A stretch of DNA of 64,000 nt from Azolla caroliniana (lineage: Eukaryota > Plantae > Polypodiophyta), in the NCBI GenBank assembly GCA_043228905.1, contig JBHGNT010000022.1:2914001-2978000 (forward strand). The letters run 5' to 3'. Below the pieces are notes generated by a model. That model saw only the letters and a program-made list of their open reading frames with translations. It did not search any database and was not told the origin of the DNA. Position numbers and translations under genes: made by a program. This document shows positions 31,668 to 57,700 of this stretch, in pieces; within the stretch, counting starts at the first letter, position 1, and each line of letters opens with the position of its first letter.

Positions 31668-31747
<80 letters not shown>

Positions 31748-33245
31748 CACTTATGAACAACACAAGATGGGGGATGAGTAAGTATATTAAATTAGCATTA
31801 TCATCATCATCATCAAATTCAAAAATACCATCAATGAGGTATATATAGATCTCATGTGCAAGGGTGCACATGTGTGAGGAGAATATAGGTACAACCGTGT
31901 AAGTCCTATATTAAATGTACTTAGGGATGGAGGATCTAGAATATCCCACTTAAGTACAAGGTCCTATTTTAGGCGTTATAGTCAACACTTCTAACTAGAT
32001 TCTATCTAGGTAACTACGAACTTACATGGTTAACTAACTAACTAAACTAAGTTGAGCTTGATCTCTCAACACACCCCCTCAAGATCAAGTGTGAGGCGTT
32101 CGACACGGACACAAACATTTATGTTGATGGAGCCAAGTGAGTCGCAAATGCTCTTGATCTTGGCGGTGTAGTTCGACACGGACATGTCTTTTTGTCGAAT
32201 GTTATTCAACTCTTGTCGGAGTTGAAGCTTTCGGGCGGTTGTGTTGGCGGCGAACATTTTCTTTAAGTTCGCCCATGCCTCTTTGGGCATCTTGGCGTCT
32301 CGAATGTGGCTAAGCATGTGGTCGTGGACACATGTTGCCAAGCAATACGTGACTCGACTAGCCGCTTGCTCCCATGTTGCGTAGTCGGCGTTCTTTGAGT
32401 CGGGTTGATTTTCTTGAGCGCCGTTGATGTACCTCCAATACCCTTGGCAGACGAGGTTTTGGGTTATCTTGTACTCCCAAGATGAATAATTACTCCGGTC
32501 TAGCTTTTCACTAGGGAGCGAGCTACCCATTTGTGTGTTCATGTTGATTGTAGTGTCTTCTCTTCTTTTGCTTTTCTTCCTTCGATCACGTACACGTGCT
32601 ACGTGGCGGCACTACGGTAACCGATAGCCGGATTTTGTCGTCGGCATCTCGAACACACAATCATGGAGTCGGGTGGGCTTAGTGGTCTTTCTAAACCACA
32701 CGCTCTAATACCATGTTAAGAATTAGGTAAGTAATTAAACAAGGATTAATTAGTACTCAATTATGTGATTAGTTGATAAGCGGAAGATTACGTGATATGC
32801 GTGTGTATATGTGTGTGTGTGTGTGTGAGAGAGAGAGATACACTTATGAACAACACAAGATGGGGGATGAGTAAGTATATTAAATTAGCATTATCATCAT
32901 CATCATCAAATTCAAAAATACCATCAATGAGGTATATATAGATCTCATGTGCAAGGGTGCACATGTGTGAGGAGAATATAGGTACAACCGTGTAAGTCCT
33001 ATATTAAATGTACTTAGGGATGGAGGATCTAGAATATCCCACTTAAGTACAAGGTCCTATTTAAGGCGTTATAGTCAACACTTCTAACTAGATTCTATCT
33101 AGGTAACTACGAACTTACATGGTTGACTAACTAACTAAACTAAGTTGAGCTTGATCTCTCAACAATTTGACATTTCTCGCAACTTTCAGTGAATTTTGCT
33201 ACATCTTTATACATATTCTTCCACCAATATTTTTGCTTGAAACGC
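29724..33245 (-). mobile_element. 3' half of a Trp-lineage gypsy element: 3' LTR 29724-30452, PPT, decayed integrase (interrupted by copia 31585-33164)
   Basis: LTR start nearly matches 43681; PPT-side sequence at 30453-30500 matches 44484-44530; IN motifs YWWKNMYKDV...CEKCQ, KYLVLA.ED.S..VEGRALR, FLLEEVFYRY.CVGQVIADRGE, YN.EANGK, PVRPTE....TW. Confidence 0.85.
31585..33164 (-). mobile_element. Non-autonomous mini Ty1/copia element (two LTRs plus truncated gag only)
   Basis: LTRs 31585-32071 and 32714-33164 are nearly identical apart from microsatellite length; TSD ATTTG (31580-31584 / 33165-33169); PBS TGGTATTAGAGC (Met-i, one mismatch); PPT GAGGGGGTG; 642-bp interior with a 158-aa UBN2-type gag fragment (32066-32542). 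Confidence 0.93.
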
Positions 33246-33393
33246 AAAGCCCAGAGCACACAACACCAATTGTCATCTCCCCGTTAGCATTTACCATGAC
33301 AATCATGTATTCTAAGAAGAGTGAGCGCCAAGATACTAGGTAAGCGCCTAACTGTACAGACACTTTTAAAAAATATATGTTTTTCAATCACTA

Positions 33394-33509
33394 GAACTCG
33401 ATACAGGGTATCGAGTTCCTTTCTAGATGTGTCTATTATCATGGGGAACTCGGTACAGCGTATCGAGTTCCTGTATAAAACCCTCACTTTTTACAGGAGC
33501 TCGATACGC
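33394..33509. repeat. Cluster of short palindromes in filler DNA between integrase and protease fragments
   Basis: GAACTCGATAC-AGG-GTATCGAGTTC (33394-33418, perfect 11-bp stem), GGAACTCGGTAC-AGC-GTATCGAGTTCC (33445-33471), and a half unit at 33492-33509. Confidence 0.85.
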
Positions 33510-36187: not shown

Positions 36188-38515
36188 ATGTGTTACAATA
36201 AGGGAAACCAATATCATACTGAGCCATGTTGCTACCCCAATCAGACACACCACACAAACGAGCACTGGCACTGTCATCAGGATCACCACCACTCCTCCAG
36301 GGATTACGGCCACGATGCCCCACGGAATTATCGTGGCTTCCGAAATAATCGTGGTTTCCATAATTTCGGCAACCGTCGACACTTTGAAAATCGTCGCCGC
36401 GATAATCAACGTGACAATCGTCGCCGACAACAAGCTAAGGATTGGGTAGATACAACCAATAATGCCAACATAAACCGTATGAAAGCCGACATAGCGGAAT
36501 CCAATGAACGGAAACACGGCCAACTACAGACCGCACATTCGGATCAACCTAGCTCTAATGATCCCGGGTGGCAGGCACTTGCGGACTCCCAAATCTCAAT
36601 GCCGCTGCATAAACTGCTCCACGTGTTACCTCGCTTCAAGGAGACGGTCCATTCACTCACAAATCGGGATTCGTTGCATCCATCCGTAAACCTCATGGCC
36701 CCGACACCAGGACCTTCTCTGATCGATTCACAAAATACAGCCGTACAACTCATCTTACGAGGTCACGAAGTTCCTGGATGCATTATCGATGGTGGGTCAG
36801 GTGTCAATGTGATTAGTGAAGCGACATGCAACAAGATCGACATCACTCAAGATACACGGTCGATACGCCCAATAGGCCTCATCACGATTATGCCTCAAGA
36901 AATGTCGACACGCATGGCTCAGCCTCAATCCGGCCAAATGTGTTTTCCAAGTGACAAGTGGAGCTTTATTAGGTCACATTGTTTTAAAGAGGGTATCGCT
37001 ATGGACCCAAACAAAGTGCAAGCCATCTTGAATGCCCCAACGCCCCCTACGGCCAAAGCACTCAGCCAATTTCTGAGCCAAATACAGTGGCATAGTCGTA
37101 TGCTCCGATACCTTGCTGATTCTGCGACCCCTTTACATGCAGCAGTCCATACGATGCCTTCTCGATGGACAGAACAAGAAGGCACGACATACCAATCATT
37201 GAAAGTCATGTTGTCACAAGCCCCAGTAGTCCAACCCCCAGATTGGACGGAGCCGTTTCACGTATTCGTGGACGCATCCGATATCGCGATCGGTAGTGCT
37301 TTAATGCAGAAAACCCCACCCAATTGGGATCACCCAGTCTACTACGCCAACCGCCGACTCTCGACAGCAGAAAGGAATTACTCCACCATGGAACGAGAAG
37401 CACTTGGCATGATATATAACGTTATGAAATTTCGGCATTATCTGCTCGGCCAAAAGTTCACGTTCCACGTACATCATTCGGCACTACTTTACCTTGTAAA
37501 TAAGCAAGCTTTGACTAGTTGGTTAGCGCGATGGATGCCGCTCCTTCAGGAGTTTGATTACAAGATTCAACACCGAATAGGAGTTCAACACGCGATAGAC
37601 GATTACCTTAGCCGCTTGGAAATAGGAGAACCGCCGGACCAAGATTGTGGTGACTTGCTAGACGCCGCCCTATTCTCCATCAACACAACACCCATCCAGT
37701 CTGATCCTAACGACGCCTGGATCACCGAAATGACCCAATTCTTAAGTACGAGACTTCCCCCGGATCACCTCCCACTTGACGCTCGAAAACGGTTAACAAT
37801 CTGAAGCCGTAATTTTTGTGTATTCACGAATACACTGTATCGCAAGGCCTCAGTTGGCATCTCGAGGCGCACGGTTCGACAATTTGAGAAAGACACCATA
37901 CTTCGTGAATCTCACCACGGAATCGCGTGCGGGCATTATGCAGGCGAAGCCACAACCCGAAAAAACTGGTAGAGTGGGCTCTGGTGGCCGACCACGTAAA
38001 AGGAAATTTATGGTGCCGTTTCGGTTGTCCAATCGAGCTAGTAAGTGATCACAAAGGACACGTCGTCAATCGAAGAATTAGTGAATTAACCTCCCACTAC
38101 GCCGTTGTACACAAGAAAAGCACCTCGTACTACCCCCAAGCTAATGGTCTTGCGGAATCCACAAATAAAACCCTTCAGACCATTCTTAAGAAAATCATCA
38201 ATGAGAATCGCACGGATTGGGACGATAAATTACACAATGCTTTATGGGCTTATCGCACGACCTTTAAAACCAGTATCGGCTCAACGCCTTTTCGACTAGG
38301 TTTTGGATTAGAAGACGTAATGCCCATTGAAATCCAAGTACCCAGCTTGCGAGTACAAATAGCTGAACGATTGCCGGAATCGGAATCTAAACACCAATGT
38401 CTGGTCCAATTACTCGAACTCGGAGAACAACGAATTGCCAGTTTGGGTCAATTGGAGCACGGAGAGAGACGAAGGAAAGCCTTTGTTGATAGACATTGTC
38501 GAATACCGGACAAAA
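36188..38515 (+). mobile_element. Athila-like gag-pol fragment, copy A (gag end, protease, RT deleted, RNase H, partial integrase)
   Basis: ORF 36116-37804: IIDGGSGVNVI, FHVFVDASDIAIG, ERNYSTMEREALG; ORF 37927-38601: CPIELVSD, YYPQANGLAESTNK, DWDDKLH.ALWAYRT. Confidence 0.9.
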
Positions 38516-40638
38516 CTTGGAACAACATTTCGGAGAATATTCACTTACGGGAAAAGCTCATCGCATGCATGGAGGTCCCAATGAGTTCTTTTGGAACCTA
38601 GCCCATTTCCTCCTCGAGTACACCTGCATCCACGCAAACCCCTATGGCATGCCGGATAAAAAAGCAAGATTATTTATTACGGCTTACCGCGACAGAGCAA
38701 TTGATTGGGGAATCATCAGCAGGGAAGGTGTTCGAGCGGCCATCGCTTCTTTTTAATCGGGGAAATGATTTTGACCCATGCTAGCACAATACACTGTTGT
38801 GTTGTACCTTCCCCAAGCACAACCTCCATGACAGACATTGGCGCTCCCTGCTCCAACCCCTAGGGCTAAACGACAACGAACGTTGCAGTTGTCGCATGAA
38901 GAGTGGCAAGATGAAGATAACCAGGCCCTTTCCACAACCCCAGCTGAGCAAAACACCGAAGACGGGGACAACATCACCATACGCGGTCGTGATAAAACGA
39001 CACGGGCAATACCCTCACGCCGGCCGACGCCACCCTCGAAACCAACCAAACAGGCCGAACAACCAATGTCTGTTCTAGAGGTCCCACGGTTTGTGGAGAC
39101 CAAACGACAACAGGAGCATGAAAAACAAGCATCCCCAGAACCTGATCAGGCCGCAAAACACCGCTGCACCAACATTAACAGCACCACACAGACTAAGGAT
39201 GGAACGATGGATGCCACCAAACAATTGGTCATCATCCCGAAGGAAGCTACCACGATCATGACAACCACCACGCTGGATCCCAATAGACCTATTGTGCAAG
39301 GTCAACAATCACGATTTTCGGAGGATGAAGTATTAACCTTCCGCGATCTGCCAGGGGAAGCATTTGGACTCGGAGCACTTTTGCAACATGGCACGACATA
39401 CAAACTCATCGACTTTTTGGCTCATCTCCAAGTAGCTGTCGCGGCCCGCATGGCCCAAGAAAACGCCGAACAACAAGTCATAGAGAGGGCCTTAGACAAT
39501 GAGCCGGCTTCAAATGAGGAGCCGACTTCAAAAGGTTGGTCGCAAACGGGCCACAAAGAAACGCCGAACACGCATTGAGCTTCCACAACTCAACACGACG
39601 TTGGTCAAAGTTTACCAGCAATTGGACAGAGCGACGCGTGCCGCCAAAGACAAGGCTAACCGTAACAAGGAGGCAAGAAAACAAGCAAAAGTTGTCACAG
39701 ACCTATGGCAGACCTCTAAAGCACAACGGGTAGAATTAGAGCAACAGCTTCAAAAACGGGATCAGCCACCCCCCCTCCCTCTACCGCATCCCCCTTCTAC
39801 CTCCAAGGACCAATCAACACAAATGAACTTACCACACTGGCCTGAACAGACCATCACGACAATATAGACGGACCAGCCCGATGCGTGCGAAAGAACCAAC
39901 ACGGCCGATGAGACCATGCCTCCTTTGCCCTGTCAATCTAGCGACTACGACCGTGCAAACCGATGAAGATATTGGTGAAACTATTCGCCAATACAAAGAA
40001 GAGATTGCCTTGCACAAAGCCATTGTAGAAAAAGCGAAAGAATGCTACGAGGACGCACAAATGGAGGCCGTCAAAAGCAAGGAGAGAGCCATGCAGAAGG
40101 AAGCCGAACTTACGAAGGAGCTACAAGAAAAAATGACTAACGTCACGGAGACAAAATAAAAAGCGGTCGACTCTATTACGTCCTTATAGGACATTGCGAC
40201 CACACAAATCGCCTCACTAAACAAAGAACTCGTGGAAATGTAGGTAAGCTCAAGTCAATTTTTGCAAAAATACGAAGACGCCGAAAACGAGTGCATCTGG
40301 TTATTTAACAAGCTCGACAAACACGAATAGACGCACAAACAACACATAAAAGAACTGGAGGAGGTTAAAACACAGTTTAGCCAACGAATCGACACAGTAA
40401 CGGAGGAAGCAACGGCAAGGGTCAAGGCAGTCAATACATCTTGCGAAATTCTTACGCCGAAATTATGGCTCGACATAGAAAAGCCAAGCACGAGATGTTG
40501 GTTCTTCAAACAATGTACGACATACGGGAGGAACGCATCAATGCGTTAGTTATGAGGCAACGACAGATATTAAACAGGAAGGTCGATGAAATACTAGCTG
40601 TAGGTTGGAAGCAATGGTCGGCTCAAGCAGCGGAATAG
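38516..40638 (+). pseudogene. Decayed accessory ORF downstream of integrase (globular N-terminal part, low-complexity linker, long coiled coil)
   Basis: Chain of same-strand ORF pieces 38496-38756, 38838-39578, 39499-39867, 39881-40159 and 40441-40638 with heptad-rich E/K/Q sequence. Confidence 0.7.
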
Positions 40639-43490
40639 CAAATGGGTTAGGTGGTGCCGTTCCACGGTACGGTTTCAAGAGAAACCCGTTGACCCAATGC
40701 AGTAGTGCTTCGCCAGCTAGTGTGCCGCGTTGAAAGATGCCGTTGTACGTGTCAATGATCCAGAAAAGCCCTATCCACTGGAATCGAAGATTGTTGGTCA
40801 TAGACCCGAGTTTTGTTAGGAAAACTAGGACCGGCTGCCCGATTTCAAAAGTTTTGTCTGGTATCCGACAATGTCTATCGACGAAGGATTTCCTTCGTTT
40901 CTGTCCATGCTCCAATTGAGCCAGACTGACAATTCCTTGCTCTCCGAGTTCGAGTAATTGGACCAGAAGCTGGTGTTCGGATTCTGATTCCGGTAATCAT
41001 TCGGCTATTTGTACTCTCAAGTTGGGTACCTAGAATTCAATGGGCATTACGGCTTCTAATCTGAAAGCTAGCCGAAAAGGCGTTGAACCGATACTGGTTT
41101 TAAAGGTCGTGCAATAAGCCCATAAAGCACTGTGTAATTTATCGTCCCAATCCGTGCAATTCTCACTGATAGTTTTCTTAAGAATGGTCTCAAGGGTTTT
41201 ATTTGTGGATTTGGCATGACCATTAGCTTGGGGGTAGTACGGGGTGCTTTTCTTGCGTACGACGGTGTAGTGAGAGGTTAATTCGCGGACTCTTCGATTG
41301 ACGACGTGTCCTCCGTGATCACTTACTAGCTCGATTAGACAACTGAAATGGCACCATAATTTTTCGTAAATGAATTTTTCGGTTGATGCTGCCGTGTTAT
41401 CTCGAAGACCTTTTGCTTCGACCCATTTCGTACAGTAATCAGTTGCTACTAGTATATATTTGTTTCTGGTGCGTGTGGCGGCAGGTTTAAAAGGGCCTAC
41501 AAGTACAAAAATCGTGAGCATCCTTTTTCGTGGTTGGCCACCAGAGCCCACTCTGCCAGTTTTTCCGGGTTATGGTGTTACCTGCATAATGCTCGCCCGC
41601 GATTCCATGGTGATATTCCCGAAGTATGGCATCTTTCTCGAATTGTTGAACCGTGCACCTCCAGATGCCATCCGAGGCATTGTAATACAGTGTATTTGTG
41701 AATAAACAAAAATTATGGCTTCGGCTCTGCTAACCGTTTTCGAGCGTCAAGTGGGAGGTGGTATGGGGGAAGTCCCGTACTTAGGAATTGGGACATTTCG
41801 GTGATCCAGGCGTCATTAGGATCAGACTCGATGAGTGTTGTGTCGATGAAGAATAGGGCGGTGTTTGACAAGTCACCGCATTCCTGGTCCGGTGGTTCTC
41901 CTGTTTCCAAGTGGCTAAGGTAGTAGACAATCGCGTGTTGAACTCTTGGTCGGTGTTGAATCTCAAAATCGAACTTCTGAAGGAGCAACATCCATCGTGC
42001 TAACCAACCAGTTAGATCTTGCTTATTTACAAGGTAAAGTAGTGCCGAATGATCTATGTGGAACGTGAATTTTCGGCTGAGCAGATAATGCCGAAATTTT
42101 GTAATGCTATATATCATGCCGAGTGCTTCTCATTCCGTGGTGGAGTAATTCCTTTCTACTGGCGTAGTAGACTGGGTGATACCAATTGGGTGGGGTTTTC
42201 TGCATTAAAGCACTACCGATCGCGATATCGGATGCGTCCACGAATGTGTGAAAGGGCTCCGTCCAATCTGGGGGTTGGACTACTGGGGCTTGGGACATTG
42301 TGACTTTCAGTGATTGGTATGTCGTGCCTTCTCGTTCTATCCATTGAAAAGGCACTGTATGGACTGCTGCATGTAAAGGGGTCGCGGAATCGGCAAGGTA
42401 TCAGAGCATACGACTATGCCACCGTATTTGGCCCAGAAATCGGCTGAGTGGTTTGGCCGTAGTGGGGGCTGGGGCATTCAAGATGGCTTGCACTTTGTCT
42501 GCGTCCATAGCGATACCCTCTTTATTAACAATGTGACCTAACAAAGCTTCGCTCGTCACTTGGAAAGAACATTTGGCCGGATTGAGGCTGAGCCGTGCAT
42601 GCCGACATCTCTTGAGGCATAATCGTAATTGCGCAAGGTGTTCCAAGTGTTGTCCATAAACAACGAAATCATCAAGGAAGAGTTGCATAAAGGCTAGAAT
42701 GAAGTCCTCGAAGATTTCGGAGATTATGTGTTGAAATGTGGCGGGGGTTGTTTTCAAGCCGAACATCATTAGCACAGCTACAAATACACCCCATTCTGTT
42801 ACAAAGGTTGTTTTCTCATGATCATCCGGGTGCATGCGAATTTGGTTATAGCCACTGAAACCGTCAAGGAAGCTATAACAATCGTGGCCGGCCACCATAT
42901 CGAGGATGTTGTCAGTGAAGGGAAGTGGGAAGGCATCCGTGATCGTGATGACGTTAAGTTTCCGGTAATCCACACAAACCAGGATTTGTCCATTCTTTTT
43001 TGTGACGACCACAATAGGACTTAGCCATGTGGCCCTTTTTACCGGTCGGAGGAATCCTACACGTAGTAATTTATCTATTTCGTCTTTTACTTTTGCCACA
43101 TAGTTGGGATTCATACGGTATCGTCGTTGATGAATTGGTCGTGCGTCCATTTGAAGGTGTATCTAGTGTTGGTAGTACTAAGGATCTAGGCCTTTCATGT
43201 TGTCGTAGGACCATGTGAACATGTCCTGATACTCTGTAAGTAATCCTATTAAGGCGGATCTGTTGCTAGTTGCCAGGTCTTTGGCAATTTTAACGATGCG
43301 TGGCTCGGAAGGTGAGCCGAGGTTGACCTCTTCTAAGGTGGAGGCTTTTACACGCTGCGATATTGCTAATTCGCGGTCAAGTGCGTCACGGGTTTGTAGA
43401 AATTCTTTTATTGATGCCTGGTCGGGTTCGTGGGGAACTTCGTGATCGATGGCGTTGGCTATGTAGGGTTCGACAACCGTGACTCCTCCT
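40639..43490 (-). mobile_element. Athila-like pol fragment, copy B (RT-RH-IN)
   Basis: ORFs 42401-43150 (YSFLDGFSGYNQI, FLDDF), 41713-42355 (RH), 41030-41551 and 40550-40915 (IN core and C-terminus). Confidence 0.92.
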
Positions 43491-44330
43491 TACAACAACC
43501 CATTATACGCCGAAGGAGTCCATATGTTAGATGGTCTCGCAAAAGACGAGATCAACTCGTTCCTGGATGAGCTCCCTACGATAGTTTCACGAAGTTCCCC
43601 ACGAACCCGACCAGGCGTCAATAAAAGAACTTCTACAAGCCCGTGACGCACTTGACCGCGAACTAGCAATATCGCAGCGTTGTCGTGCCTTTCGGCTCCG
43701 GATCGTTGCGTGAGTCGGGTGGGAACCACAGAGGTCTTGGACTAGGAGAAAGAAGTTCGTGAGATAGAGATTAATTATGAGTAAATAGCAAAGAGAAAGA
43801 TAAGAAACTCGTGAATCACACGAGTATACTATATTAATTGGTACTTAGGGTGTTAAGAGAGAAGTAGATGTATAAATCGTGAATCCCACGAATAATTTTT
43901 GTATTGATTAATACTTAATCCAAATAATCAACAACCCTTTATATATTTCTCTCCTCCTTATATAAGGAAGGAAGAGCTAAGCATGGCTTCATGCTTTTTT
44001 TCATGTCCACTAAATGTGCATGTGATGCTTTTTTATTTCCTAAGTATAGGGCTCATGCACGCTAGATGTGCATGAGTTATTTTTAGTGTCTCGTGTTTTT
44101 TTTTTTTTTTCTTTTTCATATATTAAAAAAATACACGATTTACCTTTTAATAAAGGTATGCATAAATAAAGGTCTTATACGTATTAAATCTATATTTAAA
44201 ACACTTAAGATAAGTTAATGTAATGGTAAGGTTGGGGTTTGTCAATGTGGAGGTGCAGAGTTTGAATCACGCCCTGCGCAGTAGTGAGTATTTCCTTTTC
44301 TTTTTACATTTATGTCTCTTTATCCGGCTC

Positions 44331-44399
44331 TTCCTTGCCGGTATGCCGTTTTCTTCCTTGCCGGTATGCCGTTTTCCTCCTTGCCGGTATGCCGTTTTC
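44331..44399. repeat. Three 23-bp tandem repeats in LTR U3 (also at ~49499-49567)
   Basis: (T/C)TCCTTGCCGGTATGCCGTTTTC x3 in both LTRs. Confidence 0.9.
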
Positions 44400-44475
44400 T
44401 TCCGGTTCTCACCGAGCACTCCATTCTCTATCCGGAGGGACAAAAATATAATTTCCACATAGTGTGCAACCTACA

Positions 44476-46770
44476 CTACGACACTCGCCCCCTCCAAACC
44501 CGCACATCCTCCGGTATGTGCCGAAGTTCTTGATTCTTCGTATCCGTCTTCATCCGAAGCTTCTTCCTTCGGATCTCGGCTCTCCTTTCTTTATCATTGG
44601 TTGAATCCTCGACCTCTTGTAGCATCTTCCCGATCATCAAGGTTTCCCCCTCGTATTCTTCTTCCCGGAATTCTCGGATCACGTTCACTCGGCATATGTG
44701 TTCTGACGTGAAGTAGTCTTCGGAAACTTCTTCATTATCTGATTCGGTTATGTCGTCTTCAAACCGCGCCCTCGATAACATGTCCGCTACCGCGTTGTCC
44801 TTCCCCGAGATGTGTCGAACCTCCGGATTAAGTGACTTGACATATGCAATCCACCTTAGCATAGCCACATCCGGTATCGTACAACACCGCATCATCCCGA
44901 GTATCGGAAGACAATCCGTCTCGATCACCACTTCAGCTCCGATCAAATAATCCCGATCCGATTTTATCGCCGACACGACTCCCCACAATTCTCTTTTGAC
45001 TTGTGCATATCCGCGTTGCCTTTCGTTGAGGACCTTTGCTCCAAATCGGATCGGATACCGCGAACCATCCGAGTCGGCTTGATTGATGACCCACCCGATA
45101 CCGGTTGGACTTGTATCAACCGTTACTATGATTGGCCGCTCGTAGCTTGGCTTCTTAAGTGATTCCGCCCTCCATAGTGTCTTCTTGAGCTTCCTCATGG
45201 CTTTAGTGTGTTCCGGTTTCCACTCGAATTTCTTACCTTTCCGCAACAAGTGATAGAGCGGGTCCGCTATATGTGCATAGTGCGGAATCCATATGTGATA
45301 GAATGCACACGCACCCAGAAACCTTCGGACTTCCGATGTTGACTCACATACTTCCTTCATAGCTTGAATCGCATCGATCTTTGTTGGTGACGGTCTTCGG
45401 CCGTAGGGTCCACATAGATGTCCGACCACCAATATTTCTTCTTGCCCGAATGCCGATTTCTCCCCGGAAAGTGTTAGGTGCACATCTTCTAGCTTTCGCA
45501 ACACTTTCTCGCAATCATGAATATGGTCGACCACGAACTTTCGGCATCCCCAATCATCCATAGTCTCATCTTTTTCTTCCACCGCGCATCCTTTCATCGG
45601 AATGTCATCTAGAAACGGCATCGTTATCTCCGGGATGCAATCTCGAAGCACCTTGTTCATCGCGTTCATCATATGTGCAACCGAGTTTGTCGCTCCTTGT
45701 GGTAGTGTGCACATTCGAACTAGTCCTATCGGTGTCCGCATGGTAGTGATGTCTCGGCTCTCCACGGCTAGTTGGAATTGGTCATACCCCGAGTATAGGT
45801 CCCCGATGGAGTATATCGCACGTCCGGAAAAAGCTTCCGCGAATTCGTCCACTATCGGACCGACTCCCGAGTTCCGGATCGTGACCTTGTTCACCGGTTG
45901 CAAGTCTTGGATGAATCGGAGTGACCCATTCTTCTTCGGAACCGTAAACCATCGATTTGAGTACGGAGCACTTGATGGCTCTAGAATCCCCATCGCCACC
46001 TTCTCCTTGAGCAAGTCGATGACTTTCGGAATATGCGCCCGTGGCACCGGAATCGGCTTCAGGTTCCACGGTACATGATCAATCGTGAAAATCACCATCG
46101 GCTCCACTATCTTTGGATCAATGCATCCGATCTCCCTCGATGTGAACGCGAATGCTTTGCCATGTTGCTCCAACATCTCTCGAAACCGTTTTTCTTCTTC
46201 TTGTAAGAGGAACCCACCTCCACCGATCCGAAGTTTCTTCCGGGTCTCATCTGTGAAGGCATGTCCGATATCCACGGACTTCCGAAGTGTCGGATCTCCC
46301 GAGACTTCTTTCTTCTTTTGTTCGCTATCGGCGGGTAGTGGTCCTGCGGCCGGTTTCACCTTCTTCTCCACGGTCTTGTATTTCGTACTTACCATTGCTT
46401 CTTCTTTGCGGAGCGCATCCGGCCCCATTTTCGCAACGATCTCGTACATCTCGACCGATTCCACCGGGACTACCCGGTTCCCTTGGCTTTTATCTTCCGC
46501 AAGCTCTTCAAGCCGTTGTAGTGTATTCCCATAGAACACTTCCTCGATCACTCCCACGATTTCTTCGTCTTCTTTTATTATTGATGCCGACCGTAACTTA
46601 TCCTCCACTTGTCGGTATTGTTTCTTCATTCCTCCGGTTACGGCCGTGTACGTAGATGCCCCATCCGGGCCGATTCGTACTTGTTTTGCTCCGAGAGTTT
46701 TCTTCCTGTGTGGGGTATCAGGGCTTCTCGGACTATCACTTCCCCACTCCGCAACAGTCCGCTTTAAAAA
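44476..46770 (-). CDS. RT-RNase H polyprotein frame (no integrase), open from the frameshift site to the 3' LTR
   Basis: PYSNRWFTVPKKNGSLRFIQDLQPVN, DLYSGYDQ, LPQGATNS, PFLDD, VRRFLG, VDTSPTGIG, ERQRGYAQVKRELWG, IETDC, NAVADMLSR. The frame is open upstream of ATG 46629 to the slippery site. Confidence 0.9.
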   Translation of the reverse strand, partial: FLKRTVAEWGSDSPRSPDTPHRKKTLGAKQVRIGPDGASTYTAVTGGMKKQYRQVEDKLRSASIIKEDEEIVGVIEEVFYGNTLQRLEELAEDKSQGNRVVPVESVEMYEIVAKMGPDALRKEEAMVSTKYKTVEKKVKPAAGPLPADSEQKKKEVSGDPTLRKSVDIGHAFTDETRKKLRIGGGGFLLQEEEKRFREMLEQHGKAFAFTSREIGCIDPKIVEPMVIFTIDHVPWNLKPIPVPRAHIPKVIDLLKEKVAMGILEPSSAPYSNRWFTVPKKNGSLRFIQDLQPVNKVTIRNSGVGPIVDEFAEAFSGRAIYSIGDLYSGYDQFQLAVESRDITTMRTPIGLVRMCTLPQGATNSVAHMMNAMNKVLRDCIPEITMPFLDDIPMKGCAVEEKDETMDDWGCRKFVVDHIHDCEKVLRKLEDVHLTLSGEKSAFGQEEILVVGHLCGPYGRRPSPTKIDAIQAMKEVCESTSEVRRFLGACAFYHIWIPHYAHIADPLYHLLRKGKKFEWKPEHTKAMRKLKKTLWRAESLKKPSYERPIIVTVDTSPTGIGWVINQADSDGSRYPIRFGAKVLNERQRGYAQVKRELWGVVSAIKSDRDYLIGAEVVIETDCLPILGMMRCCTIPDVAMLRWIAYVKSLNPEVRHISGKDNAVADMLSRARFEDDITESDNEEVSEDYFTSEHICRVNVIREFREEEYEGETLMIGKMLQEVEDSTNDKERRAEIRRKKLRMKTDTKNQELRHIPEDVRVWRGRVS

Positions 46771-46773
46771 TCC
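46710..46773 (-). promoter_or_regulatory. Predicted -1 programmed ribosomal frameshift signal (slippery heptamer plus H-type pseudoknot)
   Basis: G_GAT_TTT (46773-46767) directly before the gag-pro TAA; 5-nt spacer; stem 1 CGGACTGTTGC/GTGATAGTCCG; loop GTGGGG pairs with CCCCAC (46715-46710); the -1 frame is the RT frame. Confidence 0.8.
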
Positions 46774-48803
46774 ATTCTCACTTGGGACAAGAGTTCCCTC
46801 TTGTTCCTTTCGTGATTTGCCGGCACCGTTAGGAATTGGACGGATTTCCCTCCGTTTTGGCTCCGAATTCGCGCAAAAGCCGCACCACTATCGAGCACCT
46901 TCGTCTCCATCCATGAAGCCGTGATAAAGGGTTGGCCGAGGATGACAGAATGTGAAACCTCATCCTGCACAAAGAAATTTTGGTCAATTTCGACATCCCC
47001 GATCTTTACCGTCACATCCGGACAAGCCGCAAATAGGTCTTCTGTCGTTTTCGTGGCTGCCCGAATCTTCCATCCATGGTTGGTGTTTATAGGCCACTTC
47101 CCCTTTCGGTAGAACTCCTTGGACATCAAGTTGATCTCCGATCCGTGATCAATCAATGCTAGCACGGGTTCTTTGATGTTGCCGATTCGGACCGGAGTCT
47201 CCGTAGTCGCACGTGCCCAGTGTGGCCTTGTATAGTGGGAGTTCGGAATTTCGCCTTCCACTTCGGTGTCGTTCATTGAAACGGTATTTGCATTCACCCT
47301 TGGAGCATTTTCCTCCGTACTTTGTCTCTTCCTTTTCACGAGATCCACGAGAAGATCGTGAAACTCCTTCTTCGCTATTCCGAGTAGTTCCCGCAGCGAA
47401 AAATCTACCCGGCTATCCAAAATTCTTTCCTCGAACACTCTTTTCAAGTCGGTTTGTTGTTCTATGTCCGAGGCGAGCTTGAATGCCGGAGTCGCCTTTT
47501 CTTTTCCCTTACCTCCGGAGTTCTAGCTTTCCGGTATCTTCGATGGTCCGGCCGCATCCTCCGTGCGCCGTCGTTTCTCGTCCACATACACCTCATGTAA
47601 TTGACACAGGGCGTATATGCTATTCTTGTCGACAGGGCACTCCCATCCCGTAGCTTCCCGGACGCCTTCCGCGGTGTTTCGGATATCGTTGGAGTCGGTT
47701 TTCTCGGTGTTTCCTAGCACCTCCGGCCAGAAAGACGCCTTCGCTCCCGATGACTCCCCGACACATATTCCCGCGGTTATCGCATAGTTGCTTCTTGCCG
47801 CTAACTCCTCCTCGAGCACCTTCTTCATGCCGTCTTTCCGGAAGTTCGGTCGGAGTGGCTTCCGAGAGTCCATCGAATGAATCCGGTTTCCCTCGTAGTA
47901 GATGAGATCCCGTCGTAGCGCCTCCTTATGGTCGTCGCAATCCCTCCGATCGTGTTCGGCGCTATCGCACCATATGCACCGTCGATCCGTATATTTGGAG
48001 CTTGTGGGGCGGTCATCCGACTTCTTCACCATCGCAATCTTTAGATTCTCCATCTCCTTCAGCAGCTGCTCCACCGTAGACGCGTCGACTCCCTTCTCGG
48101 CCGTAATCTCCCGAGCCCTCGGTTGATGGTCTTCCAGTCCCGTTCTCGGTTTCGGAATCGGTTCCGAAACCCTCTTTTCTTCGTTGGCAAGCCATTGCCC
48201 CCTCTTCGTGTACCGCGCGACGATATCCCGCACGCTTTCCCATGTTTCGGTGAGGCCGCTTTCGGTGGTCGTGTCCTCAAGAAGCACTCCGAGATCTTTC
48301 CGGTCCCGGACGTCCACAGCTCGCAAAAACATGATGACTTTGTCCGGTGCAAGAATAGTTTGATCTCTCGCGGACAACCTCCCGAACCGACTTTCGAATG
48401 TCGAAAACACTTCGAGGACCTTCAGCCCCTTACCTGACGTTTCCACCCAATCCTCGAATCCCCTCCGCGTTGCCTTGGAGGAGTCCTCGATGGCAAACGT
48501 GGTCTTTAACGCCTCTTCGAATGCTTCCCACGTCGGATTTTGTTGTTGCAACCCGTGGATACTCCCTTGAAGCCCGTCGGTCGCCACCTGGTTAAAGGAT
48601 GTCACTTGCAGTCCTTCCGAAGCCCGGCACCGGAGCATCTCCGCCTTGTAGTCCTGCAAATATCGCGACACATCCTTACCATTAAATTGCCCGTTGCGTT
48701 GCACGAGCCGCTCTACTGATGCCGAAATCTCCGACATCGTGCGTTGTTCTTGAAGCATCCGTTCGAACATCGCCATCATATTGTTAGCTTGTTGAGCCTC
48801 CAT
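46764..48803 (-). CDS. Gag-protease ORF (one in-frame TAG at 47523-47525)
   Basis: ATG 48803 just after the PBS; CCHC knuckle CIWCDSAEHDRRDC; protease ALIDHGSEINLM...VILGQPF in the same frame beyond the TAG. Confidence 0.85.
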
Positions 48804-48819
48804 CTCCTTGCCACCCGTC

Positions 48820-48837
48820 TTCACGTCGGGTTCACCA
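48820..48837 (-). promoter_or_regulatory. Primer binding site complementary to tRNA-Trp 3' end
   Basis: TGGTGAACCCGACGTGAA, 4 nt from the LTR and identical at 35551-35568; complementary to the plant cytosolic tRNA-Trp end ...TTCACGTCGGGTTCA-CCA as recalled. Confidence 0.8.
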
Positions 48838-50400
48838 ACTGTGTCGTGCCTTTCGGCTCCGGATCGTTGCGTGAGTCGGGTGGGAACCACAGAGGTCTTG
48901 GACTAGGAGAAAGAAGTTCGTGAGATAGAGATTAATTATGAGTAAATAGCAAAGAGAAAGATAAGAAACTCGTGAATCACACGAGTATACTATATTAATT
49001 GGTACTTAGGGTGTTAAGAGAGAAGTAGATGTATAAATCGTGAATCCCACGAATAATTTTTGTATTGATTAATACTTAATCCAAATAATCAACAACCCTT
49101 TATATATTTCTCTCCTCCTTATATAAGGAAGGAAGAGCTAAGCATGGCTTCATGCTTTTTTTCATGTCCACTAAATGTGCATGTGATGCTTTTTTATTTC
49201 CTAAGTATAGGGCTCATGCACGCTAGATGTGCATGAGTTATTTTTAGTGTCTCGTGTTTTTTTTTTTTTTTTTTTTTTCTTTTTCATATATTAAAAAAAT
49301 ACACGATTTACTTTTTAATAAAGGTATGCATAAATAAAGGTCTTATACGTATTAAATCTATATTTAAAACACTTAAGATAAGTTAATGTAATGGTAAGGT
49401 TGGGGTTTGTCAACGTGGAGGTGCAGAGTTCGAATCACGCCCTGCGCAGTAGTGAGTATTTCCTTTTCTTTTTACATTTATGTCTCTTTATCCGGCTCTT
49501 CCTTGCCGGTATGCCGTTTTCTTCCTTGCCGGTATGCCGTTTTCCTCCTTGCCGGTATGCCGTTTTCTTCCGGTTCTCACCGAGCACTCCATTCTCTATC
49601 CGGAGGGACAAAATTATAATTTCCACATAGTGTGCAACCTACACTACGACAGCGTGTAAAAGCCTCCACCTTAGAAGAGGTCAACCTCGGCTCACCTTCC
49701 GAGCCACGCATCGTTAAAATTGCCAAAGACCTGGCAACTAGCAACAGATCCGCCTTAATAGGATTACTTACAGAGTATCAGGACATGTTCACATGGTCCT
49801 ACAACAACATGAAAGGCCTAGATCCTTAGTACTACCAACACTAGATACACCTTCAAATGGACGCATGACCAATTCATCAACGACGATACCGTATGAATCC
49901 CAACTATGTGGCGAAAGTAAAAGACGAAATAGATAAATTACTACGTGTAGGATTCCTCCGACCGGTAAAAAGGGCCACATGGCTAAGTCCTATTGTGGTC
50001 GTCACAAAAAAGAATGGACAAATCCTGGTTTGTGTGAATTACCGGAAACTTAACGTTGTCACGATCACGGATGCCTTTCCACTTCCCTTCACCGACAACA
50101 TCCTCGATACGGTGGCCGGCTACGATTGTTATAGCTTCCTCGACGGTTTCAGTGGCTATAACCAAATTCGCATGCACCCGGATGATCAGGAGAAAACAAC
50201 CTTTGTAACAGAATGGGGTGTATTTGTAGTCGTGCTAATGATGTTCGGCTTGAAAACAGCCCCCGCCACATTTCAACGCATAATCTCCGAAATCTTCGAG
50301 GAACTTCATTCTAGCCTTTATGCAACTCTTCCTTGATGATTTCGTTGTTTATGGACAACACTTGGAACACCTTGCGCAATTACGATTATGCCTCAAGAGA

Positions 50401-50891
50401 GGTGGGGAGGTGTGGACATCCTGAGAGGCCGTGTCTGGACATCCAGGTGCGGAGTTCTCTAGATACTTCGAGCTGCTTGGCGAGAGGTAGAGAGTTAGGT
50501 AGATAGGGAGAAGGCTGTGGAGATGGAGAACAAGAGAAAGCTTGGTTAGAGAGAGTAGGTGAGTGAGAGTAGTTCTGTGTTGAAGGAGAGAAAGCTTGGG
50601 AATTCTTGCAAGTGTGGTGGCTTTTGCTATTGGTGATGTTTTTGTGTGGGTGCCTCGGTTCTTGTGACCTGCCCTTGTACCCTAGACTCAGAATATTTCC
50701 TACCATGCGGGGAGTTGAGGGCCACGCGTCGTGTGAACTGTTTGTACTTGGTTTTCTTGAACATCGTACCTCGTCTTTAAATAGTGAGTGGGTCTCTCTC
50801 TTCTTCTTTTTCTAATAATATTGTACGTGTACACAATAGGTAGGGTTGTTACCGTAATCGAGGCGTGATGCCCTCGGAAGATCTTATTACA
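50401..50891 (+). mobile_element. PPT plus LTR-like fragment of another family between copies C and D
   Basis: Purine tract GGTGGGGAGG followed by TG at 50411, ending ...TATTACA; non-coding and unrelated to the flanking pol. Confidence 0.45.
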
Positions 50892-50909
50892 CCTACCATT
50901 GGTTGGTAA

Positions 50910-53900
50910 ATGGTTTAGGTGGTGTCATTCCACAGTACAGTTTCAAGCGAAACCCGTTGACCCAATGCGGCAATGCTTTGTCGGCTAGTGTGCCAAGTTG
51001 AAAGGTGCCGTTGTACGTTTCGATGATCCAGAAAGGCCCTGTCCACCAGAATCGAAGCTTGCCGGGCATAGCCCCGAGTTTTGTTTGGAAAACCAGGACC
51101 GGCTGCCCGGTTTCACAAGTTTTGTCCGGTATTCGACAATGTCTATCAACAAAGGCTTTCCTTCATCTGTCTCCGTGCTCCAATTGAGCCAGACTGGCAA
51201 TTCGTTGTTCTCCGAGTTCGAGTAATTGGACCAGACGTTGGTGTTCGGATTCTGATTCCGGTAATTGTTCGGCTATTTGTACTTGCAGGCTGTGTACCTG
51301 GAATTCAATGGGCATTACGGCTTCTAATCTAAAAGCTAGCCGAAAAGGTGTTGAGCCGATACTGGTTTTAAAGGTCGTGCGATAAGCCCATAAAGCATTG
51401 TGTAATTTATCGTCCCAATCCGTGCGATTCTCATTGACGATTTTCTTAAGAATGGTTTGAAGGGTTTTATTTGTGGATTCGGCATGACCATTAGCTTGGG
51501 GGTAGTATGGGGTGCTTTTCTTGTGTACGACGGCTTAGTGGGAGGTTAATTCACGGATTATTCGATTGACGACGTGTCCTCCGTGATCACTTACTAGCTC
51601 GATTGGACAACTGAAACAACACCATAAATTTTCGTAAATGAATTTTGCGGTTGATGCTGCTGTGTTTTCTCGAAGCCCTTTTGCTTTGACCCATTTCGTA
51701 CAGTAATCGGTTGCTACTAGTACATATTTGTTTCCGGTGGGTGTGGCGGGAGGTTTAAAAGGGCCTACGAAATCCAAGCCCCATTTTTGGAATGGTTCTA
51801 GGGGAAGGATCGGCTGCTGAGGCATGCGGTCGCGCTCATTTGGTTGTCCCATTCGTTGACAAAGATCACACTGTTTACAAAAATCGTGAGCATCCTTTTT
51901 CATGGTCGGCCACCAGAGTCCACTCTGCTAGTTTTTTCGGGTTGTGGCTTTGCCTACATAATGCCCGCCCACGATTCCGTGGTGAGATTCCCGAAGTATG
52001 GTGTCTTTCTTGAATTGTCGAACCGCAGGCCTCCAGATGCCATCTGAGGCCTTGTGATATAGTGTATTCATGAATACACAAAAATTACGGCTTCGGACTG
52101 CTAACCGTTTTCAAGCGTCAAGTGGGAGGTGGTCCGGGGGAAGTTCCGTACTTAAGAATTGGGTCATTTCAGTGATCTAGGCATCATTAGGATCGGACTG
52201 GATGGGTGTTGTGTTGATGGAGAATAGGGCGGCGTCTGGCAAGTCACCGCATTCTTGGTCCAACGGTTCTCCTATTTCCAAGTGGCTAAGGTAATCTTCT
52301 ATCGCATTGTCGCGTTGCTACGCGCGTGCGTGGAGAAGGGCGGGACCACGGGGGTCTTGGACTAAGGAGTAGAGGAGAAGGAATCGGACATGGAATGGAA
52401 GCTTTGCTCAAGAAGAAGAAGAATGAACAAGAGATTAGATCGAACAAGAGGAAGATGGAGACAAGATGATCAACAAGATATATTAAAACGAAATGAACGA
52501 TTACAAAAATGGTGGCCGCATAGGCTGCACCGAACGACTACTCGAAACCCTAACCGACGAAGATGAAGATAAAGATGAAGAAACCCTAACCCTAACCCTA
52601 ACGCTCGACCTATGTGGTATACCTCACACACTCAAAATAGGCAACCCCCACAATGGTGCCTTCCCTCTCCTTTTATAGCACAAGGAGGGAAGACTGTTTA
52701 CAAAAGTGAGACTAAAATATCCCCTTTCATTCAAAGGGGATATTTGCCTTGATTTGGGGAGGGTGAGATTGATGGCCCCCTTAACTCCCACCTCCACACA
52801 AACAACTAGGTACGTATGTACCGCATAGTGCCTCTCTCTCTCTCTCGCGTGGATGTGCGCACAAGACCACATCACCTTTATACCTTAGGGATCTTATGGG
52901 GCATTTCTAGCACCATACCCTTTACCCTTATTACTATTACAAATACATTATGCACGTGTGCAACGTTGCACATCGCTCTTTGCCTCTCGTTGCTCGGGTT
53001 TCCGCTTGTGGACGAAAATCTTCACGACAGCGTGTTGAACTCCTGTTCGGTGTTGAATCTTGTAATCAAACTCCTGAAGGAGGAGCATCCATCGCGCTAA
53101 CCAACTAGTCAAAGCTTGCTTATTTACAAGGTAAAGTAGTGCCGAATGATGTACGTGGAACGTGAACTTTTGGCCGAACAGATAATGCCGAAATTTCGTA
53201 ACGCTATATACCATGCCGAGTGCTTCTCGTTCCGTGGTGGAGTAATTCCTTTCTGCTGTCGAGAGTCGGCGGTTGGCGTAGTAGACTGACGATACCAATT
53301 GGGTTGGGTTTTCTGCATTAAAGCACTACCGATCGCGATATTGGATGCATCCACGAATATGTGAAAGGGCTCCGTCCAATCCGGGGGTTGGACTACTGGG
53401 GCTTGTGACAACAGGACTTTCAATGATTGGTATGTCGTGCCTTCTCGTTCTGTCCATTGAAAAGGCACTGTATGGTCTGCTGCATGTAAAGGGGTTGCGG
53501 AATCGGCAAGGTATTGGAGCATATGACTATGCCATCATATTTGGCTCAGAAATCGGCTGAGTGCTTTGGCCGTAGGGGGGGCTGGGGCATTAAAGATGGC
53601 TTGCACTTTGTTTGGGTCCATAGTGATACCCTCTTTAAAACAATGTGACCTAATAAAGCTCCACTTGTCACTTGGAAAACACATTGGCCGGATTGAGGTT
53701 GAGTCGTGCGTGTCGACATCTCTTGAGGCATATTCGTGATGAGGCCTATCGGGCGTATTGGCCGTGTATCCACCATTCGTAACCAGAATGGACACGAATC
53801 ACATTGAGTGATGTTGATCTTGTTGCATGTCCCTTCACTAATCACATTGATGCATGACCCACCATTGATCTTTCATACGGTCTATGTTGGCATTATTGGC

Positions 53901-54458
53901 TGTATCTACCCAGTCCTTAGCCTGTTGCCGAACAGAGTCCTGGATGTCCCACTGTGATTGTTGCGTGGTCTTACTGCGTGTGGTCACCTGTTGCACGTCG
54001 ATCGTGATCATGTTTACGGCTGGTGCTTTGCCCCTATTGTTGGTGGGGCACTCGTTAGCGTATTTGCCTGGTTGATTCCAGTTAAAACAGATGGTGGGTG
54101 TCGAGGTACTAGGGTCGCCGTGCTCGAAGTGGGTTTGTGGTGGATGTTGTGGTTGATCTTCCTGGCCCTGCGGTGGATATCTTTGTGGAGGGTTTACCCG
54201 AGCTTCCATTGGGGGGTTGCGCTAGTTATTGTCACGTTGATTATCACGGTGACGATTGTTAAAGTGTCGACGGTTGCCGAAATTATGGAAACCGCGATTA
54301 TTTCAGAAGCCACGATAATTTCGTGGGGCATCGTGGCCGTAATCCCTGGAGGAGTGGTGGTGGTCCTGATGACAGTGCCAGTGCTCATTCGTGTGGTGTG
54401 GTTGATTGGGGTAGCAACAGGGCTCAATACGATATTGGTTTTCCTGATTGTAACACGT
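50910..54458 (-). mobile_element. Athila-like gag-pol fragment, copy D (RT deleted); inverted counterpart of copy A
   Basis: Gag knuckle remnant (53838-54209), RH (52948-53522), IN (51535-51903 CKQCDLCQ...WGLDFVGP); same protease/RT-end deletion junction as copy A. Confidence 0.9.
52308..53029 (-). mobile_element. Solo LTR of the Trp-primed lineage inserted in copy D
   Basis: TGTCGCG...CACGACA; 4-bp TSD GCAT/GCGT; the uninterrupted site in copy A reads atcGCGTgttg on the same strand. Confidence 0.88.
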
Positions 54459-54782
54459 TGTCGTGGAGAAAACCTTCCCAAGGAGGAACGGTGGATGGTG
54501 TGCGTGAATCAGCCCTTACACACGGGCACATGTTTGATATATTTACATACATAGTTAAGTACAGGTCGGCGATGTAATTATCCTAGGTTGCACGAATTCA
54601 TTAAGTAGGGAATCAAAGAGGATCTCTGTCTAAAAGGACAGAGAATAACAGTGATTTAGCCGTTTATAAACGACTCTCTCTCCTTGTGCTATAAAAGGAC
54701 GAAGTGTTGTCGGGCTGGGAACTGAGCTCTCTCCTCCACCATCATCGTTGTTTTTGCCGGGATTTTGGGTTAGGTTGGTTGT
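54459..54782 (+). mobile_element. Partial LTR, inverted copy of 35823-36187, cut by the element starting at 54783
   Basis: Reverse-complement similarity including the LTR/gag junction. Confidence 0.88.
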
Positions 54783-57700
54783 TGTTACCCGGCCGGCAAA
54801 GGAGTTAAAGACCAGAATGTGAAAGGGATTGTTTATTCAGAATAGATTATAATTAAGTAGTTTATGAAATGTGAACGGACGGACCGGAATCGGTATGCCG
54901 ATCCGGATCCAGACCAGTTCCGAACAGGTGCCGGTTGGCACCGTTTTGTACTCAGCACTGGTGACCTATATAAAGGCCTGGTTACAATGTAAAACTTTGA
55001 CAAATCATTAATAGACCTTCTTGTTTTATCTTTAAGTGTTGATTACTGTTCTGTGCTAATTGTTCTATCATACGCGTGTATCAAGTCTAATGCCATATTG
55101 CTAAGTAACCAATTAAGTCTGATCAATCGTTGTGTCTAAGTTATCTCGCCGTAGCACCCCTTTGGTGAAGTGTCTTCCGTAGACACCCTGTGTTAGGCCA
55201 TTGTCCAGCCCTAAGGAATAACACAATTTTTGGCGACCACGATTCCTGCACAATCGCAACGAACAACGGCGGGAATGGATGACTAGACCAACGAACGACC
55301 CGGTTAGGGAGTGAGCAAGGAGACTTGCTAAACGGCTGAGGAAGTGAGAGGCTTTCCAGCAAGCGGCGGATGAAATCAGAGTGGATCACTCATTTTCCAA
55401 GGTGATCCAGAGAGTGGTCAAGGAGTCACTTCGGTTACCACAAAACGACTCGGTCGAGGAGGAGAGGCCTCCTATACCGAAAGAGGAGCAGGAAAGACCT
55501 CTGACACTGACAGAGGAGCGGGAAAGACCTCCGACGCCCACAGAGGAGGAAAGCCCACCGACACCACCAGCCCGCGTATCGACACCAGTCGACGATATGT
55601 TGTTCCAATATCCCAGATGCCGGGATGATCTGGACGCGGAAGCCCACGTTCATGTGTTTCAGCAGACCTGGGAGGCAAACCATGTGTCCCAACGCTTAAA
55701 TGCGGCCGAAGAGGAACGCTAAAAAATGGCAGAGTTCGGCATGACCCTGGAGGGACCGGCCGCCAGATGGCACCGAACACAAGATCCCAGCACCATCCCC
55801 ACGTTTGAAGCATTAAAAACCAAATTCTTGCATTTCTTTCACAAGGAGATGGACCAACGGGAAATGGTAGGCCTATTTTACATTATCTGGCAGGAACCAA
55901 CGGAGAACATTCAACAGTTCAGCATCTGGTTCCAGCGGATACACAGTCAACTCAGCCGGGCACCACCGAAGGAAGAAACAAAGGCCATATTCTTAGCAGC
56001 ACTCCGGGAACCCTTACGAACGATGTGCACCGTCATTGATTTCTGCAGTAGCAGCATAGATAAAGTGATCGACCGAGTTCGGGAAATGGAAAAATCAAGT
56101 TCATGGCTAACCATGGGCACACTTCAACGTGCACTACCGACACATGAGGACCTCCGCTTCCGGCAAGCAATTCAATGTACGACATGCATGAATGCCGGAC
56201 ATTCGGTGTTGGAATGCACCATGCGTTGCCAATGCTTGCTCTGCCACTCCAGAAGTCACACAATGGAACGGTGTGAGTATAACTTGTTAAATCAGCAAGC
56301 ACCACCAGTCCGGCAAATTGAACCACGAAGCAACCGGGAGGAAGAAGAAGAACGTTGGCGGCGAGAGGAGTGCTACCGGCCGGCATAAGATGTCTAGTAC
56401 ATCGATCGAAGAGACACTTATGACCGGTATGACAGACAGGATAGATATCAGGACTATAGTGGACGGTACAACCGGGATCACTCCCCTGGTTACAACCAAC
56501 GACGGGACGACTATGGCAAGTATGACGACCAGCCCCGTCAAGGTCACCGAAACAAAAAGAACTTCAACAAGAAACATCATTTCAACAAAAAGGGGGGTCA
56601 TCCACAGGAACCGGAAAAGGGCGCTCCAAGCAGCCAACAGCAACCGAAAAAGGGCACTTACCACAGGACCTCAACCGGGGCCGAGCACAAACGCCGAATC
56701 CAGTAACACCCGGAAGGTGTATTGCTATTATTGCCGGCAAGAAGGCCACTATAATAACCAATGTCTGGCGAAGAGCTACGACAAGAGACCAACGATGGAC
56801 ATGGTAGACACGGAAGTTGCGGACTTACAACAAGTCGCTACAAGATCAAAAGGCAAAGCCACGGAGTGGGAAACTCAAGAAGCCATCCAGAAGCAGGCAA
56901 CCGAATGGGTGGAAAAGGCAAACAAGCGGAATGTGGTAGAGCTCGAACAACAAAAGGAGAATGCCGAAGAGCTCACCGGCATAGGCCAGCCCGAAAACCC
57001 AACATGGCAAACATGGCAAGTGTTACAAGAATGCCAAATAATGCTGCCGTTAGGCTGGCTATTGCAACTGGTACCACGCTTCACGGAAGGACGGCAACTG
57101 ACACACCACCGGCTCCGGCTTTCTTTTCAAATCCGGAGGAAGGACCGACGGTAGTAGACACGAGTAGTCCCTCAATCACAGCCATCGTGAAAGGAAAAGA
57201 GCTACCCGGCATGATTATCGATGGAGGATCCGGCGTGAACGTGATCAGCCTCCGAACGTGTAACACTCTAGGAATCCATGATTGGGAACCATGCTCGTTT
57301 TGGCTTCAGATGGCGGACTCAACCTCAGTACGGCCGACCGGATTAATATGGGATCTGGAAGTGACCATCGGGGGTCACACATTTCGCATTTCGGCAGTAG
57401 TTCTCCAGCTACAGGCTCAGGGAGCTTACCCACTATTGTTGGGATGCCCTTGGTTAAAAACAACACACATCAAGCAAAACTGGAGGAAGAATATAATTAC
57501 GATCCGGCGTGGAAAAGCGAAAGTGCGAGTACCGACTCAACCACGGTCGAGTACTAGCAAGGAATTGACGCCGCTATATGAGGAATGTGTCAACATGTTG
57601 GAAGGATTGGCGGACGAAGAGGTCGATCAATACTTACAAGAAAATCCGAAGATCGTACCGTTGTTTGAAATTGATGTAGCCGAAGCAGTATCACCGTACA

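Follow-up and report, generated by a model that had tools for sequence, protein, structure and literature searches.

In alpharetroviruses the protease lies within Gag and one frameshift gives a Gag-Pro / Pol layout, and in MMTV the pro-pol heptamer is of the G_GAU_UUN type. The gag-pol junction of Rous sarcoma virus and the pro-pol junctions of MMTV and HTLV all combine a −1 shift with a pseudoknot or stem as stimulator and yield RT as a minority fusion, and in MMTV and HTLV the shift is placed at the end of pro (PMC5009743). A G_GA-type site, which the sequence-only reading of the locus described here had named for dianthoviruses, is documented there and also in umbraviruses (PMC5009743).

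For plants, a 2016 review of recoding states that a survey from 2003 found only two types of element with split gag/pol, both of them +1. The separation of Gag-Pro from RT-RH-IN is already known in plants: Ogre and Retand (Tat) encode Gag-Pro apart from RT-RH-IN, as the element described here does (PMC6317226). Ogre, however, has a spacer and a spliced intron and Retand a single in-frame stop, and neither is listed with overlapping frames (PMC6317226); the REXdb table lists no gypsy lineage with overlapping frames between protease and RT (PMC6317226). The new part is thus the overlapping −1 cassette. Skipper was considered as a pro/pol precedent and set aside, as it is described with protease and RT in one ORF. 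No prior description of the cassette was found in the literature searched, which lay mostly outside subscription journals.

The window (the whole 64,000-nucleotide stretch of Azolla caroliniana DNA that was analyzed) carries on its minus strand an element with the marks of Ty3/gypsy, namely, LTRs, a primer-binding site, a polypurine tract, and the order gag-PR-RT-RH-IN (Table 1). The two LTRs are 98.6% identical, with 4 mismatches and 1 gap. A relative, L001, is 98.5% identical to this copy over 4.6 kb and has both ORFs intact: a 712-aa gag-pro frame that is open throughout and a 1241-aa ORF that includes the integrase. Integrase is likewise found in a more distant locus, L046, but about 1.3 kb encoding it is absent near 44560 in the window copy relative to L001. 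The window copy is young and defective. Ribosomes would not normally reach its cassette, because a premature TAG in gag lies upstream, and this copy probably does not use the frameshift signal; the frameshift question therefore concerns the family rather than this copy. The sequence-only reading had the cassette right but overlooked both the premature TAG and the loss of integrase. The primer-binding site putatively matches tRNA-Trp; none of 31 pattern-match loci held a tRNA gene.

Table 1. Coordinates of the element and of the frameshift cassettes (window positions, except for L043 and L046)
Feature	Position	Strand	Basis or remark
Whole element	43681-49651 (5,971 bp)	-	LTRs, TG...CA ends, flanking duplication
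5' LTR	48842..49651	-	TG...CA ends; similarity to 3' LTR
Primer-binding site	48820..48837	-	13-nt core in 36/82 loci
gag-pro frame (DUF4100 + aspartic protease; ATG at 48803)	46764..48803	-	domain matches
Premature TAG in gag, upstream of cassette	47523-47525		breaks gag-pro
Slippery heptamer G_GAU_UUU	46767..46773	-	read from sequence
Gag-Pro stop TAA, directly 3' of heptamer	46764..46766	-	read from sequence
Stem 1, 11-nt loop	46729..46761 (arms 46761-46751 and 46739-46729)	-	folding, covariation
Predicted stem 2, 3' arm CCCCAC	46710..46715 (5' arm = loop 46747-46742)	-	covariation, partner swaps
−1 frame ORF (linker, RT, RNase H; without integrase)	44476..46887	-	domain matches
Polypurine tract, before 3' LTR	44484-44495	-	
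3' LTR	43681..44483	-	similarity to 5' LTR
4-bp target-site duplication GCGT, NCGN type	43677..43680 (partner 49652-49655)	+	
L043 cassette	2835-2912		AG_GUU_UUU
L046 cassette	2497-2574		AG_GUU_UUU

The surroundings of the element are rich in other transposon remains. The regions at 36000-43600 and 49652-60400 hold nested, decayed gypsy elements of another lineage, with RTs 21 to 26% identical to that of the studied element, whose insertion point is the linker upstream of one such decayed RT; about 145 bp of the sequence at the insertion site recur in inverted orientation at 43307-43445. The lineage of the studied element is represented again at 29721-35600 on the minus strand by a second, diverged element, whose protease is 61% identical and whose primer-binding site, at 35556, is the same. 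This second element has lost its junction, RT, and RNase H, and its integrase is interrupted by a short LTR-bounded insert (31585-33164) that contains a copia-like gag fragment. Elsewhere in the window, a 212-bp unit is repeated in tandem in three near-identical copies that overlap an RT/RNase H fragment (28650-29288), and there are copia-like fragments of gag, protease, and integrase (61975-63875, minus strand) and host gene exons for an RNA polymerase I A49-like subunit (PF06870; 6538-9347, plus strand). These exons and the named relatives of the studied element suggest that the host is a non-seed land plant.

On the minus strand, the gag-pro frame of the studied element terminates as ATG GAT TTT TAA. 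The heptamer is followed by a 5-nt spacer and an 11-bp stem that includes 3 G-U pairs, and a CCCCAC located 13 nt past this stem is complementary to the hexamer in the loop. Heptamer, stop, stem, and loop-pairing CCCCAC were all confirmed in the minus-strand sequence where they had been claimed, as was the continuity of the −1 frame with RT-RH: this ORF of 803 aa (46887-44476) runs through FLKRTVAEWGSD into RT and RNase H. Stem 1 and predicted stem 2 would together form an H-type pseudoknot according to the structural model. Taken alone, the window structure is within what chance produces. In single-sequence folding the hairpin has a z of −0.40, with 76 of 200 shuffles folding equally well, and the loop pairing is equaled in 6% of 300 shuffles; Rfam has no match in the window. 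Across relatives, by contrast, the structure is far beyond chance, as described below.

The RT alignment search covered the best 80 of 163 metagenome loci and 2 contigs of a prokaryote genome collection. Most of the loci come from one metagenome assembly series, with narrow host sampling, and the assembled repeats are collapsed sequences. This RT is also encoded by two contigs from assemblies labeled as a cyanobacterium (L081, 68%) and a Streptomyces (L082, 67%), which are probably contamination. The set forms 28 clusters at 90% RT identity, window included, and many of the loci have both ORFs intact. Both a protease and an RT match were present in 60 of the 82 loci, with RT identities of 57 to 99%. 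Relative to protease, RT is in the −1 frame in 58 of these 60 and in the −2 (equivalently +1) frame in two, L043 and L046; none has the two domains in the same frame.

This count bears on the reading of the break as an inactivating indel, private or shared, in decayed copies. In its favor, the window copy is decayed, and random mutations kept REXdb from determining the layout of Phygy, a lineage considered below (PMC6317226). However, a private indel would leave protease and RT in one frame in most members, and the lack of any in-frame locus refutes the idea, to which we assign a negligible probability; the same break point recurs over the whole range of RT identity, including in loci with intact ORFs. 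Contigs of four DNA runs from three organisms (4,188 contigs over 46560-46960) agree, as no indel at ≥2% is listed among them. None of the 40 variants listed of 86 in these runs is a substitution in the heptamer, and the base listed as variant at 46764 gives a different stop codon. Among 56 pattern matches to viral contigs there were no relatives. Stop-codon readthrough was also ruled out, since RT is out of frame.

The heptamer itself is conserved. Over 59 junctions (L058 was left out, its junction being deleted), 54 have G_GAT_TTY, as does the window, two have G_GTT_TTT, and G_GGT_TTT, A_AAT_TTT, and G_AAT_TTT occur once each; most of these variants remain slippery (G_GGT_TTT and A_AAT_TTT), and the G_AAT_TTT of L065 is nonstandard. 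A stop (TAA, TAG, or TGA) immediately follows the heptamer in 23 of 31 representatives, and the open stretch permitting a shift has a median length of 18 nt. In L010, L028, and L036 the RT frame is open from only 3 nt upstream of the heptamer, and the 0 frame ends directly after the heptamer. Among the 22 loci without a protease match, L049 and L056 have the cassette in the −1 register; the covariance model found none in the other 20, several of which begin inside RT. Elsewhere in gag-pro, G_GAT_TTY occurs 5 times among 16,957 other codons. Only 13 of the 96 other Asp-Phe codon pairs have this form, which argues that the bases, rather than the Asp-Phe dipeptide, are under selection.

In a structure alignment of 31 rows, 77.6% of the cells of the two-stem structure are paired, versus 39.5 to 41.9% in slid registers. 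Two-sided changes number 76, compared with 32 ± 5 in shuffles (0 of 500 as high), and affect 9 of the 11 pairs of stem 1 and 5 of the 6 pairs of stem 2. Stem 2 scores 500 with its own partners, whereas swapped partners give 410 ± 14, and none of 10,000 such permutations reached the score of either stem. On an RT tree of 27 rows, from which L053, L061, L065, and L073 were left out, stem 1 shows 18 same-branch co-changes versus a mean of 6.5 with permuted partners (0 of 20,000). In the common register only 4, 1, and 2 of 8 pairs form in L061, L065, and L073, respectively, and these three have weak covariance-model scores; each folds a stem of its own. The alignment of the junction across copies thus bore out the expectation of a conserved heptamer with compensatory stem changes.

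These patterns also speak to transcriptional slippage, in which a base would be added on the T run in some transcripts. Every junction has such a run, but a short one of 3 to 6 bases. Conservation extends to the GGA part of the heptamer, and a pseudoknot that covaries and sits at a ribosome-sized spacing fits decoding and not transcription, making this explanation extremely unlikely.

Frames, heptamer, stop, covarying stems, and the breadth of their conservation are observed directly, and the cassette is a genuine recoding signal under selection, mechanistically of a known kind but in a new setting. We consider pseudoknot-stimulated −1 ribosomal frameshifting at the gag-pro / RT-RH-IN junction of a Phygy-type Ty3/gypsy lineage to be the best reading of these sequences, at a probability of about 0.88. 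At the stop that follows Asp-Phe most ribosomes would terminate, releasing Gag-Pro, and a minority, stalled by the predicted pseudoknot 5 to 6 nt downstream, would slip back one base on G_GAU_UUY. The slipped ribosomes would make Gag-Pro-RT-RH-IN as a minority fusion, which the element's protease would then cut. We infer the slip, its efficiency, the fold of the pseudoknot in vivo, and the processing. The earlier proposal that Gag-Pro is made in bulk and RT-RH-IN by frameshift is therefore supported, as an inference, by the absence of in-frame loci, the conserved heptamer, and the covarying stems. The junction has a heptamer of the X_XXY_YYZ type (with G_GA allowed), an open −1 ORF, and a structure, its fold predicted, 5 to 8 nt downstream; spacers of 5 to 8 nt are typical (PMC3458567). 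In pea enation mosaic virus, G_GAU_UUU functions as a shift site (PMC5009743); the heptamer, the use of plant ribosomes, and a stop close 3' of the site are all shared with that virus. Umbra- and dianthoviruses combine a stem with long-distance pairing kilobases away (PMC5009743), whereas here the pairing is local, about 10 to 23 nt past the stem.

RT-RH-IN could instead be made by separate initiation (reinitiation, an internal start, or a subgenomic RNA), with the structure having another role. The RT-frame ORF does have AUGs before RT, and the case is stronger for L043 and L046, where an in-frame AUG lies 24 and 4 codons upstream of the heptamer, respectively. Over the 31 representatives, however, the first in-frame AUG wanders from −24 to +107 codons, in contrast to the fixed frame, heptamer, and spacing, and RT made in this way would be free, without the Gag tether that, by established retroelement logic, is needed for its packaging. 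We give this route a very small chance.

Protein relatives show how far the split layout extends. Among the 120 matches listed, RT relatives of 441 to 1406 aa include a protease only in 10 Riccia gene models. Of 45 longer relatives, 21 at 59 to 70% identity are all Riccia gene models of >1400 aa. Many of the long Riccia models join protease and RT, skipping differing junction stretches, and because they skip different stretches we read these fusions as annotation bridging by predicted introns. The same models could be taken to indicate Ogre-like partial splicing that removes the stop and joins protease to RT, with the stem regulating splicing, as Ogre does between the same domains (PMC6317226). 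In addition to the inconsistency of the skipped stretches, the ORFs here overlap and are not spaced, there is no conserved donor (the best GT position is common to 11 of 31), and heptamer identity and fixed spacing would be left unexplained; we regard splicing as very unlikely.

Frameshifting as the favored reading also fits the ends of the Gag-Pro proteins, which were searched for among proteins of ≤1189 aa. Of 87 Gag-Pro ORF ends that are not from gene models, 64 are [DNG]F, 20 are [DG]F plus five residues, 1 is VF plus one residue, and 2 lie elsewhere. Named relatives come from Physcomitrium, Riccia, Adiantum, and Calypogeia. The rest of the 45 longer RT relatives comprise 18 long proteins at 35 to 45% identity that appear fused, three of them named from fungi, 2 Chara models, and 4 weak matches. 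A quick RT tree unites the split elements with the Riccia proteins (100 SH-aLRT) and places the fused proteins outside this group, so that the split layout looks derived, although long branches meet in this tree. The proteins P0143 to P0160, P0142, and P0161, with 35 to 45% RT identity, fall outside the split group and include those from Colletotrichum and Zalerion (three) and Chara (two models). We presume that the lineage may ally with fungal Ylt1-like elements. Since the distant relatives found are fused, the likeness to retroviral frameshifts is probably convergent. The element resembles an alpharetrovirus in layout but is not a member: it has a Ty3/gypsy RT, no envelope gene (L001 and L046 each contain only two long ORFs), and one shift, unlike MMTV and HTLV.

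Assignment to the Phygy clade is probable. REXdb describes Phygy, a clade of non-chromovirus Ty3/gypsy elements, as having a 4-bp NCGN duplication, mostly tRNA-Trp priming, and an ORF organization given as "ND" (PMC6317226). The assignment was made because of the 4-bp NCGN duplication, which the GCGT on both flanks fits (one insertion), and because of nested Physcomitrium proteins, although the proteins compared carry no Phygy label. In a quick protease tree, four Physcomitrium proteins fall inside the group, two of them sister to L044 (98 SH-aLRT), and Physcomitrium proteins end in DF plus five residues, as do L059 and L064. Phygy elements have neither a chromodomain nor an extra ORF; no chromodomain was found in L001 or L046, no extra ORF was seen, and, as in Phygy, the coding region fills the interior. 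At 5,971 bp plus the ~1.3 kb missing, the window element is slightly under the 7.7 to 10 kb of Phygy. Differences from the REXdb description are that Phygy is called Physcomitrella-specific, while here relatives also come from Riccia, Calypogeia, and Adiantum; and that its layout is "ND," while here gag-pro overlaps RT-RH-IN.

L043 and L046, which share 87% RT identity, depart from the −1 pattern. Their gag-pro frames end in CAG GTT TTT NAC TAG, and the long ORF, which lies in the −2 frame, is open for 1152 and 1099 codons, whereas the −1 frame closes after 0 and 5 codons. Both stems are kept, but the stem begins 5 nt after the heptamer versus 6 in the −1 elements. L046 is intact, with ORFs of 761 and 1106 aa. 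Three observations show that this is no single-copy accident: in the Gag-Pro cluster of L043 (35 in all), 5 of the 14 other members listed have the QVFD end, the rest being fragments; the RT-frame proteins of both families start in the matching frame; and 9 contigs among the matches listed from four runs span the site without gaps (coverage of L046 is sparse, at 24 contigs).

L043 and L046 are predicted from these frames to slip two bases instead of one. With GAU changed to GUU in the slippery site, tRNA-Phe could re-pair two bases back, and the loss of one spacer base would be a second, coupled change toward −2. A +1 shift is less favored, as the slip gives UUG in L043 whereas −2 gives UUU in both. 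On balance we think it probable that a clade-wide −1 pseudoknot frameshift exists and that one branch re-tuned the same pseudoknot to −2 by the two coupled changes. In three quick trees the pair falls within the −1 elements, although an AU test lets the alternative stand in which all −1 elements group to the exclusion of the −2 pair (P = 0.279), and the direction from −1 to −2 is read from starred branches of the quick trees only. P0423, a Calypogeia fissa gene model for a Gag-Pro fragment, ends in KVFY like L046 and groups with L061 and L065 in the protease tree, possibly hinting at an independent second origin of −2 shifting.

Both kinds of change have parallels elsewhere. −2 shifting is reported to peak at spacers 1 to 2 nt shorter than those for −1 (PMC3458567), and −1/−2 switches within a group are described for Trichomonas viruses and tailed phages (PMC5009743). 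The octamer of L043 and L046 is identical to AG_GUU_UUU, the −2/−1 site for PRRSV nsp2TF, and the early stop in their −1 frame resembles the arterivirus nsp2N truncation. However, the PRRSV site has no RNA structure and needs a protein stimulator (PMC7618472), whereas L043 and L046 keep the pseudoknot-forming sequence. Arterivirus-type signals, of the form RG_GUU_UUU, also include a C-rich motif to which a viral protein and PCBP bind. If the −2 reading is true, these nuclear retrotransposons would offer a natural case of −2 frameshifting driven by RNA structure, and one that evolved in agreement with the in vitro rule of shorter spacers for −2.

A −1 pseudoknot cassette conserved throughout a clade at the boundary of protease and RT closes a gap in the plant recoding record, and it is a likely reason for the fused gene models annotated in liverworts, mosses, and ferns. 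With this lineage, dozens of natural variants of a single plant frameshift signal become available, and its −1 and −2 sister families, evolved sequences that share a pseudoknot but differ by one base in the spacer and one in the slippery site, allow the mRNA-tension model to be tested (PMC3458567).
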